Positions 9,001-51,000 of a stretch of DNA of 64,000 nt are shown here, one piece after another. Numbering within the stretch: position 1 is the stretch's first letter; every line of letters begins with the position of its first letter. Source of the stretch: Myxococcota bacterium (GTDB lineage Bacteria; Myxococcota_A; UBA9042; PHBI01; JAWLBL01); contig JAWLBL010000019.1 in NCBI GenBank assembly GCA_041687695.1, positions 96,001 to 160,000 of the forward strand, in the 5' to 3' direction. Position numbers: made by a program.

Positions 9001-12000
9001 TCGACCTTGTACTCGAGGCCAGCGTCGGGGTCCGTCTCGCCCTTGGTGAAGACGAAGACGAACTGGGCCTCCTGGCCGGGCGCGAGCAGGCCGTCGTGCG
9101 CGCCGAGGAACCGCGAGTGCTGATAGGTGACCACGCCATCGCCGGCGGCGGCGTCGCCGTTGGCGCCGTCGTCCAGGAGCTGGATGGGCGTCCAGGCGTT
9201 CATGGTGCCCTTGACCCACACGCGATAGGTGGCGAGGTCGACGCCCTCGAAGTCCGGGTGCAGGCCCGCCATGTCCAGGTGGACGCGGAAGTCCCGGTCG
9301 CCATGGGGTGTGATGGTCATGCCCGGGACGTCGATGACCTCGGTGGAGCCCTTCGGGATGTCGAACACGCCGTTCGGCCCGACCCAGATCCAGCGCAGGT
9401 CGTCGTTGAGCGCGCCATAGGCGAAGGTGCGGTCCTGGTCCGCCTGGTAGCAGACGGCGACGCCGAAGACGTGGTCGCCGGCCGTGGCGCCTTCGGGCTC
9501 GTGGCCGCCTTCGCTGCGGGGGCCGTCGTCGTGCAGGGTGGGGTAGGGGCCCTCCTCGGGGAGCCAGCTGGTCGCGTACTGGAGGGTGTTGGTGGCTTCG
9601 TCCCAGGCGAAGGAGCCGGTCCAGATGAGCTCGCCGGCCCCGTAGGTCTGGTTGGCGCTGTCGTCGACGCTGAACGTGAGCGTGGCGAAGCCCGCCGGGC
9701 ACAGCCCAGTCGGCGACTTGGTGTCGGTCGCGACCTCGGGGTCGGCGTCGTCGCCAGGCAGGTCGGCCGCGTCCTGCACGTCGGCGACTGCAGCGTCGGC
9801 GGGGGCCTGTTGGGGACCGCTGCCGCAAGCCGTGTTGACGGTCAGGGCGACGGCGAGGGCGAGCGCGGGCGAAAGACGAACGGACATGACCTCTCCTCGG
9901 GAGCGCAGCGCAGGCTATCGACCGCCTCGGCGCGGCGTCAAGGCGCCCCAGGACCGGGGATGGGGCCGGGGACGCGCAGCGCCGGCACTGTCTCAGGGGT
10001 GTCCCGTCCGGCGCCGCCGCGGAGCGCCGTAACCCCTCGAAATCGCATTCATTCGCCGGAGAGGGTGTCCCAGCTGTGTCAGAGGGATGGGACAGTGGGA
10101 CACCTGCGCTGATGCAAGTGCGCTGAATCATTGAGGGCGCGTCCTGGAACGCCCCTTGCTCTCGCCGTCGCCCGGGAGGTGCGACATGGCGGTAAAGGCA
10201 TCGGGAGTGGGGCTGGTCGGGATCGACGGCGTGCTCATCGAGGTGGAGATCGGCGCGCAGGACGGGCTGCCCGGACTGGACATCACGGGGTTGCCGGCGG
10301 CGAGCGTGCGCGAGGCGCGGTTTCGGGTGAAGTCGGCCTTCCGCCGCAGCGACTATCCGTGGCCCGAGGGGCGGCTCGTGGCGAACTTCGCGCCGGCGGA
10401 CCTGCCGAAGGCGGGGACGGCCTACGACCTGCCGCTGGCCATGGCGGTCCTCGCCTTCAGCCGCGAGTCGCTCCGCGCGCGCCTGGCCGACTTCGTCTTC
10501 TATGGCGAGCTGGCGCTCGACGGCAGCGTGCGTGAGGTGCCCGGCGCCGTGAACGCGGCGTTGGCCACGCGTGCCGGCGGGCGTCGCGCCCTGGTCGTGG
10601 GGCCCGGGAACGCCGACGAGGCCGCGGCCGTGCCGGGCATCGAGGTCTACGTCGCGGAGACCCTGTACGAGCTGGTCGAGGCCCTCGAGGGCCGAGCGTC
10701 GCTGCGGCGCGCCGAGCCGGTCTCCGAGGGCGAGGCGCGTCGGCCGACGCTGGATCTCGCCGACATCCGCGGACAAGCCAGGGCGCGGCGGGCGCTCGAG
10801 GTCGCCGCCGCGGGCGGGCACAATCTGCTGATGGTGGGCCCGCCGGGCTGCGGCAAGACGCTGCTGGCGCGGGCGATGGTCGGGATCCTGCCGCCGATGA
10901 GCCTCGAGGAGCGGCTCGAGGTCACGCGCATCCACAGCGTCAGCGGCCTGACGCGCGGCAGCCGCGGCCTCGCCAGCGTGCGGCCGTTTCGGGCGCCGCA
11001 CGCGACGGCCAGCTTCGCGGCCCTGGTCGGCGGCGGCAACCCGCCGCGCCCGGGCGAGCTGAGCCTGGCGCACCGGGGCGTCCTGTTCCTGGACGAGACC
11101 CCCGAGTTCAACCGCCTGGCGCTCGAGTCCCTGCGGGCGCCGCTCGAGGACCGCGCCGTCACCATCACCCGGGCGGCCCGCGCGGTGACCTTCCCGTCGG
11201 CCGTGTCGCTGGTCTGCGCCATGAACCCGTGTCCGTGCGGCCACAAGGACGACCCGACGCGGCCCTGCCGGTGCACGCGCGGGCAGGTCGAGGCCTACCG
11301 GTCGCGGCTCAGCGGGCCGCTGCTCGACCGCATGGACATCCAGGTCGCGCTCAGCCCCGTGCCGCCCGAGCTGTTGGCGCAGGCGACGCCGGGCGAGGCG
11401 TCGGAGCCGGTGCGGGAGCGGGTCATGGCGGCGCGCGAGCGGCAGCTGGCCCGGCGCGAGGAGGCCGGCGGGGCGGCGACCAACGCGGAGCTGGCGCCCG
11501 GCGCGCTCGAGCAGGTCGCCCCGCTCGGACGGGCCGAGCGCCGGCACCTCGCGAACGCCGCGCGGACGCTGGGGCTGACCGCGCGCAGCTGGCATCGGGT
11601 CATCAAGGTGGCCCGCACGGTCGCGGACCTCGAGGGGGCCGAGCGGGTGGACGCGCGGCACCTGTCGGAGGCGCTGACCTACCGGCTCTTCGAGCGCGAA
11701 GGGAGCGCGACCGCGCGGGGCGCCTTCGCGCCGCGCGGACGATGAGGGTGGCCGACCGACCGGCGCGCTCGACGGGCGAGCGGCCGAGATCGCGTCAGGC
11801 CGAAACGGGTCGCTTCGGCGGCCGGAGGGAGTGGGCGATGAAGAAGGGCAGCAACCTCGACAAGCTCAAGGATCTCATGGGCATGGTCGACAAGAAGTTC
11901 GGCAAGGGGACCATCATGAACATGGACGATCAGGACAGCGCCAAGGTGAAGGTGTTCTCGACGGGCTCGCTGGGCCTCGACGCGGCGCTGGGCGTGGGCG

Positions 12001-48000: not shown

Positions 48001-51000
48001 GTCCGGCGCCTGGTACTCGTGGCGCGAGGGGCGCCTGGGCCAGGGGCGCGAGAAGGCGCGCGAGGCCCTGATGGCCGACGAGGCGCTGTTCCGGACCCTG
48101 CGCGCCGAGACGATGGCGCGCCGGCTGGGGCGGCCCGCGCCGGTGGTCGAGGTGGCGGGCGACGACGGCATCGAGGCGCAGGCCGCCTGAGGCGCGCCCG
48201 GGAGGACGAACGATGAGCGTGAACAAGGCGTTCCTGGTGGGCCGGCTCGGCGCCGCGCCCGAGATGAAGACGACCCAGGGCGGAAAGGCGATGTGCCAGT
48301 TCAGCGTGGCCACCGACGGCTGGGGCGGCGAGGACAAGGGCCGCACGACCGAGTGGCACTCGATCGTGGTCTGGGAGCGGCAGGCCCAGCTCTGCGAGCA
48401 GTACCTGAACAAGGGCAGCCTGGTGGCGGTCGAGGGGCGGCTCGCGACCCGCAGCTGGGACGACCCCAAGTCGGGCGTCAAGCGCTACAAGACCGAGGTC
48501 GTCGCCTCGCGCGTGACGTTCCTCGGCGGCCGGGGCGAGGCCACGACCCACCCGAGCGGCGGACACGACGGCGGGCCCGGAGCCGGGCGTCGCGGTGGCG
48601 CGGTGGGGGTGGCGCATGCGGGGCGGGAGGTGCGTGATGACCTTCCGTTCTGACGGTGGCGCCGACGCGCCGGCCATGCACGTCTCGCTGAGGGTCACGG
48701 CCCGCTGCGAGGCGCCGGAGGCCTCGGCCCACTGGGTCGAGGAGGACGGGATCGCGCGCATCGTCGCGCCCCGGCCGGCGGCACCGGCGGTCGGCGCGCT
48801 CAAGCGCTGGCTCGAGCGCTCCGGCTTCGACGTGGTCGACGTGCGGGCGCGTGGACGGAGCTGCCGCATCACCGCGAACGGCGCGTGGAGCCCGCGCGAC
48901 GCGCCCATGGCGGCGCCGGGCGAGCGTGTCGGCGGCGACGGCTGACCCGGGCCCGGGCCCGGGTGCGACCCGCGGGGAGGCCTGCCTCCCCGTGGCCCCC
49001 TCGCGGGTCGCGTCTTGGCCGCCGAAGCGGCGGTGGGTGCGAGGGCACCGGTCGCGGACATGGGCTGGCAGCGACAGCAGGCGTGTCGGCTGCGGGCCGA
49101 TCCCTGCAGGGGCCGGCGGGCTCGGGCCGGGAGGCTTTGCCGACGAGGCCGTCCGTCGCGGACCGTGGACCGTGACGCGGCGCCCCGCTATAAGGGCGCC
49201 ACCGAGGCGGCAGGCGAAGAGCGTGGCCAGAGGGCGCCCGAGGGCGTCGGAGGAGAGGGCGATGGCGGAGACACTGCAGGTCGTGCATCCCTGGACGGGC
49301 GAGGTGGCGCTGGAGGTCCCGATCGACGGACCCGAGGTCGTCGAGGCCAAGGTGAAGCGGGCGCGGCAGGCGTGGAAGGCCTGGCGCACGACGACGCTCG
49401 AAGAGCGCACGGCGCTGGTGCAGCGGTTCCTGGACGTCGTCGCGGCCGAGCGGGAGGAGCTGGCCCGTTCGGTCTCGCTGCAGATGGGCAAGCCGGTCGC
49501 CGAGGCCCGGGGGGAGGTCGGGCGGCTCGTCGAGCGCGCTCGGATGATGCTGGCCATCGCCCCCGAGGCCCTGCGCGACGAGCACGTCCCCATCGGCGAC
49601 GGCCTCCGGCGCGTCATCGTTCGCGAGCCGCTGGGCGTCGTCCTGGACATCGCTGCCTGGAACTATCCGCTCATCATCGCCGGGAACGTGGTCGTCCCGG
49701 CGCTGCTCGCGGGCAACACCGTGCTCCTCAAGCACGCCAGCCAGACGCCGGGCGTCGGGCTGTGGTTCGAGGAGGCCTTCCGCAAGGCGGGCGCCCCCGA
49801 GGGCGTCGTCACCGCCGTGACCGTGCGCGGCCGCGACGCCGCCGCCCTCATCCAGCACCCGGACGTCGCGGCCGTGTTCTTCACCGGCTCGGTCGAGGGC
49901 GGGCGCGACGTCTATCGCAAGGTCGCTCAGCGGCCCGAGGGCTTCATCGACGCAGGGCTCGAGCTCGGCGGCAAGGACCCGGCCTGGGTGCGCGCCGACA
50001 TGCCGCTCGAGATCGCCGTCCCCAACCTGGTGGAGGGCGCCTTCTACAACGCCGGACAGTCGTGCTGCGGCGTAGAGCGCATCTACGTCGATCGCGCCAT
50101 CTACGACGACTTCGTGCGCGCCTTCGTCGAGGAGGCACGCCGCTGGCAGGTGGGCGATCCGCTGGCGCCCGACACGATGATGGGGCCCGTGGCCTCGCCC
50201 GGCACCCTGGACACGCTCGAAGCCCAGATCCGCGACGCCGTCGCGCGTGGCGGACGGCTGCTGCTCGGCGGCGAGCGCCTGCCCGGCCCCGGCTGGCGGT
50301 TCCCCGCGACCGTGGTGGCCGAGGCGAACCACGAGATGGCGCTGATGCGCGACGAGAGCTTCGGCCCGGTCATCGGCCTGATGCCGGTCGACGGCGACGA
50401 GCAGGCGATCGCGCTGATGAACGACACGGTCTACGGGCTGACCGCCTCGATCTGGACCGCCGATCTGGCCCGCGGCGAGGCGCTCGCGCGGCGGGTGGTC
50501 GCCGGGACCGTCTTCGTCAACCGCTGCGACTACGTCGACCCGGCGCTGCCCTGGACCGGGTTCGGCGACAGCGGAAAGGGCGTGACGCTCTCGCGCCTCG
50601 GGTTCGACCACCTGACCCACCCGCGCGGCCTCCATCTGCGCGACGTCCGGATGATGCGATAGGCGCCTGGATGACCGAAGTCCCCAAGGACCCGCCCACC
50701 GACCTCACCCAGCTCACCCTGGCCGAGGTCCCGCTCGCTCGCATGGGCCCGGGCGGAGACCTGCGGCCGTCGTTCGTGGGACTTCAGCGTCCCTGGACCC
50801 GCCGGGGGGTGCACCGCTGGCTCGACCTGGTCGATCCCGCCGGTCGCTGGCCGGTCGCGGTCCTCGGCGCGCTGCCTGCTTCGGGCGCGCCGGCGCTCGC
50901 AGGCGCGCTGGTCGCTCTCTGGGCCTCGGAGCCGCTCGAGCGCTTCGACGACCTGTTCGATCGACCGCGTGGGCCCGCTGGTGACGCGTCGCGTCGCCCC

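Follow-up and report, generated by a model that had tools for sequence, protein, structure and literature searches.

A prophage within a divergent recA gene of a Myxococcota bacterium, and related serine recombinases beside recA halves broken at the same codon

Results

One of a Myxococcota bacterium's two recA genes carries, on contig JAWLBL010000019.1, an insert of 35,306 bp with the hexamer ATCAAC at both junctions (12411-12416 and 47717-47722). All coordinates refer to the window, namely the whole stretch of 64,000 nucleotides analysed, whose features are the following.

10156..11745, + strand: host flank, Mg-chelatase/ComM-like AAA ATPase gene (Pfam Mg_chelatase 1.2e-88, ChlI, Mg_chelatase_C; GC 0.73-0.75)
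11838..12416, + strand: recA 5' piece, up to and including the Asn194 codon (Pfam RecA positions 3-189, 2.4e-89; GC3 0.97)
12384..12445, no strand: attL (B arm 12384-12413; central AA 12414-12415 in ATCAAC; P' arm 12416-12445)
12417..47716, no strand: body of the prophage, 35.3 kb, recognised by composition (GC 0.575-0.73; flanks 0.73-0.77) and gene content
12683..14935, + strand: type II restriction-modification cargo, namely Vsr nicking endonuclease, C5-cytosine methyltransferase and Eco29kI-type restriction enzyme (Pfam Vsr 1.5e-24, DNA_methylase 1.2e-56, RE_Eco29kI 8.2e-66; PADLOC Vsr, MTase_II, REase_II)
20148..22052, + strand: early/replication region (Pfam HTH families, GIY-YIG 5.7e-6; phrog_8102, phrog_1035), with a wHTH protein weakly matching a replication initiator (20148-20996) and an HNH + GIY-YIG endonuclease (21423-22052)
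23582..25075, + strand: terminase large subunit, TerL (phrog_2 2e-28; Terminase_6N/Terminase_3)
25072..28471, + strand: head module, assigned by position (ORF order and size)
30432..36493, + strand: tail module, with tube 30432-31640, tape measure 32338-34863 and beta-helix fibre/spike 34868-36493 (Phage_tube_2 6e-7, Beta_helix 7.2e-10; phrog_290, phrog_3779)
44064-44780 and 45316-46017, - strand: two paralogous DUF4145 genes, PD-T7-4-like defence candidates (Pfam DUF4145; phrog_1305; PADLOC PD-T7-4 6.9e-13 and 2.8e-15)
46089..47747, + strand: large serine recombinase (LSR) gene (Pfam Resolvase 29-185, Recombinase 209-291, Zn_ribbon_recom 312-369; phrog_95 integrase 8e-83)
47690..47751, no strand: attR (P arm 47690-47719; central AA 47720-47721 in ATCAAC; B' arm 47722-47751)
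47723..48190, + strand: recA 3' piece, Gln195 to stop (Pfam RecA 185-261, 1.4e-36, and RecA_C, 5.6e-18; GC3 0.98)
48213..48653, + strand: host flank, single-strand DNA-binding protein gene (Pfam SSB 9.3e-34)

The cut falls at recA codon Asn194, inside an 11-residue motif of the protein. The open frame of the 5' piece continues into phage DNA up to a stop at 12527 and gains 36 unrelated residues, and on the other side the frame from 47714 to 48190, called from a GTG at 47744, matches RecA 185-261 and RecA_C. The genome-wide survey's note had described a recA gene cut in two by a 35.3-kb prophage, a 5' piece matching RecA up to profile position 189, the missing residues readable just upstream of the called start of the 3' piece, and a shared ATCAAC at which excision would rebuild the gene; each of these points is borne out. 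When the halves were joined in silico by a script, a protein of 348 aa with zero internal stops and with the Walker A, Walker B, L1 and L2 motifs all present was obtained; its gene has 1047 nt, with the insertion at nt 579-580.

The genome holds exactly three RecA matches, namely the 5' and 3' pieces and, on contig C27, an unbroken copy, as the note had it. The whole copy is the canonical recA and the split one is the divergent of the two. GC3 of the halves (0.97 and 0.98) is close to that of the whole copy (0.99). Stops, frameshifts, motif loss and unusual branch length were looked for in the split copy and none was seen, its terminal branch of 0.44 lying among the values of intact members of its clade (0.025-0.99), and the worry that it is simply a dead paralogue finds no support here. 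No other LSR-type split of recA was seen in the order (18 genomes including the present one), in agreement with the earlier observation; partial recA matches in one of them (G001) were ruled out as a split, being contig ends. In another genome of the order (G012) recA is possibly frameshifted.

The element is recognisable as a tailed phage by its gene content, and Vsr, Dcm, Eco29kI, GIY-YIG/HNH, TerL, the tube (Phage_tube_2, phrog_290) and the beta-helix protein, all named before, were found again. The 492-aa ORF after TerL, probably the portal, has no family match, and 27587-28471 matches a capsid family below the cut-off (Phage_capsid_4, 1e-4). Three long structural ORFs (841, 845 and 541 aa) are uninterrupted, and no sheath gene was found in the tail module. 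Many structural proteins do lack a PHROG match, as previously noted, but the count of 11 of 14 given then is here 16 of the 20 ORFs between 23085 and 42685 (E<=1e-3). No repressor, small terminase or lysis gene was recognised in the prophage, none of the 44 element ORFs matches the RecA family, and Pfam, PHROG and PADLOC scans gave no family-based candidate for a directionality factor; to our knowledge, recombination directionality factors share no common family.

The LSR has an N-terminal resolvase-type catalytic domain (Pfam Resolvase 4.6e-19) with its nucleophilic serine, Y15, R17, V18 and S19 being invariant in an alignment of 60 sequences. This is followed by a Recombinase domain (1.5e-16) and a zinc ribbon (Zn_ribbon_recom 2.3e-6) whose four cysteines C299, C302, C320 and C333 are invariant in the same alignment, with an embedded coiled coil corresponding to long helices at 369-455 in the structure model of a relative (P0002). 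Its best match of solved structure is SprA of SPbeta (E 4e-13), and its identity to any isolated-phage integrase is at most about 26%. The note had placed the end of the LSR gene at the start of the 3' recA piece; the two do adjoin, but the ORF spans attR, and its final 8 codons and stop (47745-47747) are recA DNA.

Dyad symmetry of the reconstructed attP is imperfect around the 2-bp crossover, and attB and attP share little beyond the 6-bp core (18 of 62 positions identical in the window). About the same central AA, the rebuilt attP is mirror-symmetric at 15 of 30 bases in the window, 14 of 30 in G301 and 16 of 30 in G458, scores which are individually modest (a score of at least 15 occurs at only 1.8% of the positions in the window, and one of at least 14 at 2.3% of those in the G301 region). 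The crossover, formerly deduced from six shared bases, is now also supported by the mirror symmetry of three rebuilt attP sites about the same AA. The attP sits inside the LSR gene, so integration swaps a conserved C-terminal tail of LRIRLVA type, an exchange seen in each of the three elements whose two ends could both be examined: the computed circular forms end in LRFRLVV (window), LQLRLVA (G301) and LKIRVVA (G458), and the integrated forms lack such ends. Among 119 database relatives of the LSR, 39 end in a tail of this type. When integrated, the LSR keeps every catalytic domain.

In five further genomes of the phylum (G301, G429, G458, G465 and G504), a relative of this LSR adjoins half of a recA whose break is at this same codon. 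In G301, which belongs to a different family, an LSR about 39-40% identical to that of the window adjoins a recA split at Pfam positions 189/185 by an insert of 45,367 bp. Its order contains a member of the LSR family (E<=1e-60) in 12 of 147 genomes, and in 5 of the 12 fetched loci, those of the five genomes named, the stop of the LSR leads into a recA 5' half lying in reverse complement. In G458 the locus is complete on one contig with an insert of 16,224 bp, and precise excision restores the gene in silico there too, the junction giving a rebuilt reading of 13 residues. The LSR module is carried by three unrelated elements: a 35-kb sheath-less phage in the window, a 45-kb myovirus-like phage with contractile tail in G301, which has only the LSR in common with the window element, and a 16-kb phage remnant with scattered tail genes in G458. 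The recA 3' half of G504 was found neither at E<=1e-10 nor in 20 kb of contig around the LSR and 5' half, so that decay of some insertions is possible. The genome studied here (G000), G301, G458 and G504 each have a second, whole recA, as does G465 after rejoining across a 127-nt contig overlap and, as judged from profile coverage, G429.

In metagenome and viral sequences, a recA half was found at the 3' end of the LSR in 14 of 86 loci (12 distinct), with two more recognised by eye; 2 of the 14 are oriented as in the window and 12 the opposite way. All 11 distinct 5' halves listed stop right after (V/I)(V/I)FI+AA, and all 7 available 3' halves, that of the window among them, begin QLRQKIG; in these cases with a visible 3' half the target is always the non-canonical QLRQKIG paralogue and never the canonical recA. 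The LSR stop is included in 61 of the 86 loci, and 47 of the 61 have no recA match; of 15 loci with intact tail, one has the perfect 12-nt recA core, three have 9 of 12 and the rest are at background. Judged from these sequences, a recA target cannot be assigned to every member of the LSR family. None of the public sequencing runs searched holds the window locus (best share of words 0.09).

Discussion

We consider it probable that a temperate tailed phage resides in the divergent recA, placed there by an LSR whose clade targets the same codon, and that its excision would restore the gene. Recombination by the LSR would have joined the attP of the phage to an attB whose centre is the AA in the Asn codon, and the choice of attB would be a heritable trait of the clade, whose members act at this codon from unrelated elements and in both orientations. 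As long as the phage stays, this recA copy is interrupted, with the ATPase core on one side and the L2 loop/C-terminal domain on the other, and the cell would depend on the canonical recA. Integration also parts the LSR gene from its conserved tail, with a few recA-derived codons in its place; the LSR together with a predicted directionality factor would restore recA without a scar. The phage is presumably still active, the tail exchange presumably matters, and the loss of this copy is presumably tolerated owing to the second recA. That the LSR recurs on unrelated phages is most simply put down to one clade of recombinases being specific for this attB, and does not by itself prove regulation; it is compatible both with a neutral choice of a safe, conserved site and with an adaptive effect on the host.

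Regarding known systems, the closest is the recA mobile element (RME) of Vibrio cholerae, with a similar insert in V. parahaemolyticus: about 33 kb, site-specific inside recA and, like what we propose for the window element, leaving as a circle, restoring recA and inserting in both orientations (PMC4405046, PMC4334540). According to the same accounts, the RME is a genomic island with a 'phage integrase' gene, taken as tyrosine-type, and XerS, lies at nt 494 of 1065 (PMC4405046), and brings its own functional recA and umuDC. In contrast, the window element is a tailed phage with an LSR, lies at the IFINQ codon and carries no recA, the second copy being chromosomal; an RME-type island was therefore rejected on recombinase, position and gene content. 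The LSR elements SPbeta in spsM (SprA/SprB), skin in sigK and A118/phi10403S in comK resemble it in having an LSR at one end, insertion in an ORF and, as reported, scarless reconstitution on excision (PMC4191935, PMC5025042, PMC7397523, PMC3556126). They differ in target and in hosts, which are Firmicutes rather than soil bacteria of this phylum, whereas the window element also has attP inside the LSR ORF, with an enzyme tail that changes with state. The literature searched yielded only the Vibrio tyrosine-integrase islands; neither an LSR nor a phage family with recA as its target turned up in it. The Int of myxophage Mx8 is a tyrosine recombinase, and the phage integrates at attB1/attB2, not in recA. 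Like the window LSR, it has its att site inside the integrase coding sequence, and integration gives int a new 3' end, which is reported to change the behaviour of the enzyme (PMC6070905).

The last parallel bears on a more ambitious reading, that of a regulated genetic switch or 'active lysogeny', in which a host cue (such as DNA damage, oxidative stress or development) would trigger excision without killing, turn the specialised RecA paralogue on and, by re-integration, off again, the tail state of the LSR helping to set direction or timing. Its structural prerequisites are all present, since the rebuild is scarless, the halves are intact with host codon usage and the integrated LSR retains its catalytic domains; the target is consistently of one type, and the two RecA paralogues of M. 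xanthus are reported to have separate roles (PMC7029660). We nevertheless regard such a switch as unlikely, because the module is shared by unrelated phages that look complete and lytic-capable, as expected under plain lysogeny, neither a directionality factor nor a host-controlled promoter was identified, and an M. xanthus-type SOS box is absent throughout this genome. At the other extreme, the element might be a relic unable to excise, its split recA a dead paralogue tolerated thanks to the canonical copy; the whole second recA in all six genomes, the small and scattered G458 element, the missing 3' half in G504 and the many window phage genes of no recognisable family would fit. This is quite unlikely for the window, where the recA halves keep frame, motifs and GC3 and have an ordinary branch length, the att half-sites, LSR ORF and long structural ORFs are intact, and the GC of the element is still well below that of the host, which suggests a recent arrival. 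That a phage contig was misjoined into recA is conceivable in a draft of 63 contigs and yet extremely improbable, both junctions lying in one contig, sharing the core and rebuilding the frame exactly, with the same architecture in independent assemblies.

Beyond the resident phage as we read it, one may imagine that the temperate phages of soil bacteria include a widespread clade specialised on recA. Lysogeny would reversibly remove a specialised RecA paralogue, possibly a driver of recombination or repressor cleavage, and may leave a truncated RecA(1-194) that could interfere with filaments formed by the other copy. In this way the phage would tune the circuitry of DNA damage and induction, its integrase 'knowing' the state via the exchanged C-terminal strand, and excision would return full RecA at DNA damage. 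We offer this as a speculation that is, on balance, improbable.

Conclusions

What is new is that the split of recA is not a one-off: related LSRs adjoin a recA broken at this codon in five further genomes and in metagenome loci numbering at least 14. RecA is the sensor by which most temperate phages decide when to leave a damaged host, and a phage family living inside recA would physically couple lysogeny to the RecA machinery. In bacteria with two RecA paralogues it would knock out one of them naturally and reversibly, and it would offer a natural experiment on why some lineages retain two recA genes and a second case, of serine-recombinase type, of an integrase C-terminus depending on the state of integration. 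The defined attB/attP pair and the uncharacterised LSR clade, with a highly conserved target in most bacteria, may be of interest for integration tools. Even if it were plain lysogeny at a conserved site, it would still be the first recA-targeting phage integrase family found in the literature searched.

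Results

The divided recA gene and its prophage

The genome-wide survey's note had described one of this Myxococcota genome's two recA genes as cut in two by a prophage, and our analysis confirms this: two pieces on the forward strand cover complementary parts of the Pfam RecA profile, and the core ATCAAC that was said to be shared by both junctions is present at 12411-12416 and at 47717-47722, so that the insert measures 35,306 bp. Joining the halves by script rebuilds a recA of 348 aa with no internal stops, as the note had expected, and the product retains the Walker A, Walker B, L1 and L2 motifs. 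The other single RecA match of the genome, on contig C27, is indeed a complete gene. The third-position GC is 0.97 and 0.98 in the two halves against 0.99 in this whole copy, and the GC content is 0.575-0.73 inside the insert against 0.73-0.77 in the host flanks.

Features of the divided recA locus (window coordinates)
Host flanks of the split recA: ComM/Mg-chelatase-like gene and ssb, GC 0.73-0.77
11838-12416, + strand: recA 5' piece, Pfam RecA positions 3-189 (2.4e-89)
Left end of prophage: Vsr/Dcm/Eco29kI restriction-modification cassette
Mid-prophage, low-GC early region: HTH protein and HNH/GIY-YIG endonuclease
After the early region: TerL (phrog_2, 2e-28)
After TerL: probable portal, called from position only
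Head region: capsid candidate, weak match
Tail genes: tube, tape measure and beta-helix fibre
Right end of prophage: two DUF4145/PD-T7-4-like genes, then the recombinase
46089-47747, + strand: large serine recombinase (LSR) with Resolvase, Recombinase and Zn-ribbon domains (phrog_95 integrase, 8e-83)
47714-48190 (frame), + strand: recA 3' piece, Pfam RecA positions 185-261 plus RecA_C

The prophage genes were called by codon-position GC and 44-45 ORFs were scanned, among which no directionality factor was identified; PHROG matches are lacking for 16 of the 20 ORFs between 23085 and 42685. Neither a sheath gene nor a tRNA gene nor a further recA was found within the prophage. Defence cargo is seen at both of its ends, the restriction-modification cassette at one and a paralogous DUF4145 gene pair (44064-46017) at the other, which matches PD-T7-4, a candidate defence protein in PADLOC (6.9e-13 and 2.8e-15). 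The low-GC early region also holds a gene for a MORN-repeat protein (18087-19055; MORN_2, 8.9e-16).

At the left junction the frame of the recA 5' piece continues into phage DNA for another 36 residues and stops at 12527 (12412-12527). The native promoter could drive expression of RecA(1-194) ending in a foreign tail, and interference of this truncated protein with the other RecA is conceivable. At the right junction the LSR stop TGA (47745-47747) overlaps a GTG (47744) and an ATG (47747) of the recA frame, an arrangement through which the 3' fragment could be translationally coupled to the recombinase; there is no indication that this fragment is functional.

The targeted copy within the order

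In a tree of the recA genes of the order (18 genomes; the separate pieces of the window and the loci L033-L035 were set aside), two clades, the slow A and the faster B, are separated with support 100/100. The whole copy belongs to clade A and the rebuilt split copy to clade B, where its terminal branch of 0.44 lies within the range of 0.025-0.99. The survey's statement that recA is unsplit elsewhere in the order holds, since none of the other genomes has such a split. A second split suspected in genome G001 was rejected, its partial matches being contig ends. Another genome of the order, G012, has a recA at C33:30531-31308 (L035) whose Pfam match is spread over two frames, positions 3-236 and 231-262; this points to a copy that is frameshifted or otherwise broken, with no recombinase involved. 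The SOS box motif of Myxococcus xanthus (PMC9705874) has no exact match in the whole genome and none at up to 3 mismatches upstream of either recA.

The recombinase family and its recurrence in genomes

The LSR is remote from known phage integrases, with at most about 26% identity to those of 50,697 phage records, and its closest solved structure is SPbeta SprA (E 4e-13). A search of genome contigs with this single sequence brought up only LSRs with 20-29% identity, almost all of them from Firmicutes; at one of these loci (L064) a recA lies about 3 kb from the LSR without adjoining it, which was treated as coincidence. In the protein database 244 relatives reach E<=1e-30; among the matches listed there are 119 at 40-53% identity, 60 of which were aligned for the locus search.

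Among 401 genomes of the phylum searched with the LSR, one close relative came up, at 40% identity, in G301, a genome of a different family. It adjoins a recA 5' piece ending at the same VVIFI motif, and the gene is split at Pfam positions 189/185 by an insert of 45,367 bp, with a whole second copy present. The two inserts have the LSR alone in common (39% over 484 aa), no other common ORF being found among those of at least 50 aa at E<1e-6. In G301 the element, a contractile-tailed phage, encodes sheath, baseplate and portal proteins together with DnaB and exonuclease VIII.

In the order of G301 a family member at E<=1e-60 occurs in 12 of 147 genomes, and at five of the 12 loci (G301, G429, G458, G465 and G504) the LSR stop directly meets the reverse complement of a recA 5' half. 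A whole recA is kept in G458, G465 and G504 as well as in G301, and would be present in G429 going by profile coverage. The whole gene of G465 spans two contigs with a 127-nt overlap, which explains its apparently doubled recA halves; the 3' half in G504 was not found at E<=1e-10. In G458 (L251, C25:56800-75200) the entire arrangement lies on one contig, with a recA-splitting insert of 16,224 bp that carries scattered tail genes and encodes a SocA/Panacea-domain antitoxin and, as its second recombinase, a small resolvase-type enzyme (Resolvase 3.1e-31).

Contigs with partial recA in three fragmented assemblies end or begin at about Pfam 184-189, the integration site (G429:C289/C129, G465:C125/C21, G001:C530/C261); such breaks may reflect assembly-graph branching at the conserved core, or a sample in which some sites are occupied and others empty. 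The 12.7-Mb genome G511 has seven contigs with a more distant family member (E 8e-66 to 5e-83), several copies lying near contig ends as expected for a multi-copy element.

Recurrence in metagenomes

With the alignment of 60 sequences we fetched 80 metagenome and 6 viral loci, and the LSR stop is present in 61 of these 86. A recA half stands directly at the LSR 3' end in 14 of them, or 12 distinct sequences once the duplicates L159/L161 and L166/L167 are merged; two are oriented as in the window and 12 in the opposite way. Two further cases (L156 and L171) were recognized by eye, and none of the six viral contigs carries recA. All 11 distinct 5' halves listed break directly after (V/I)(V/I)FI+AA, and the 7 available 3' halves all start with QLRQKIG, where clade A copies read QIR(M/N)KIG. 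All 3' halves and the short pieces from L153, L177 and L210 were left aside for a tree of 5' halves, in which the targeted copies from elsewhere fall into two groups, both lying outside the set made up of clade A and the G301 whole copy.

Two loci inside genome assemblies, L235 (G494:C640) and L239 (G505:C93), have family recombinases with an intact conserved tail and no adjoining recA; they represent either phage contigs that are unintegrated or extrachromosomal, or family members that use a different target. The whole recA at L246 (G525:C505) is not split; a partial recombinase-family match (residues 45-236 only) is found about 270 bp away.

Attachment sites and exchange of the recombinase tail

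The phage site attP, rebuilt by script inside the 3' end of the LSR gene, shows mirror symmetry about a central AA at 15 of 30 positions in the window, 14 of 30 in G301 and 16 of 30 in G458; a value of 15 is reached by 1.8% of window positions and 14 by 2.3% of the G301 region. The empty recA site attB of the window is identical to attP at 18 of 62 bases. Against the attB sequence of the split gene, this genome's whole clade A copy is identical at 47 of 62 positions and differs mainly in the right arm; these differences could account for its being spared.

Because the LSR reading frame crosses the right junction attR, its final 8 codons and its stop consist of recA DNA. The computed circular form encodes 565 aa ending in ...LRFRLVV, a tail type found in 39 of the 119 relatives among the matches listed, and the corresponding ends ...LQLRLVA (G301) and ...LKIRVVA (G458) are regained in the circular form only. 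In a second LSR subfamily the protein ends in ...AQVYxAG and the stop codon straddles the crossover; L155, L157 and L221 diverge directly after this stop, as expected of attP forms. When the 'LVDA' tail motif was checked in the DNA of 15 intact-tail loci as an antisense recA core, one locus (L181) matched at 12/12 and three at 9/12 at -50 to -53, with the remainder at background, at least 9/12 being reached in about 7% of random segments.

In the predicted model of the database relative P0002 (mean pLDDT 86) the crossover falls in a disordered linker (residues 494-514), and the conserved tail appears as a short segment at 516-521 with pLDDT of only about 56-64, a hint that it may form a strand. 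The exchange leaves untouched all known LSR domains, which lie upstream of it, so the enzyme in its integrated form probably remains competent.

Discussion

Gene-splitting prophages with LSRs are well known, as in SPbeta/spsM, skin/sigK and the comK phages. For recA, the report on the recA mobile element (RME) of Vibrio cholerae describes a 32.8-kb island at nt 494 of the gene, which carries a phage-integrase gene along with a recA and umuDC of its own, excises in circular form and occurs in both insertion orientations (PMC4405046); a similar recA insert is reported in V. parahaemolyticus (PMC4334540). In Mx8, attP is described as lying inside int, and Int is altered by integration (PMC6070905), and the functions of RecA1 and RecA2 of M. 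xanthus are reported to be divided (PMC7029660). We found no description in the literature of a phage or LSR family targeting recA, and the word 'recA' gave no hit in the main text or in 8 supplementary files of Durrant et al. 2022 (PMC10083194). None of 24 sequencing runs listed contains the locus, the best share of words being 0.09, which corresponds to conserved recA words of relatives.

The split recA reported by the survey is not only confirmed but generalised to other genomes and to metagenome loci. As read from the sequences, one clade of LSRs, carried by unrelated phages and phage-derived elements, uses a single codon of a non-canonical recA paralogue as its attB, and by the same reading these recombinases exchange their own C-terminal tail on integration.
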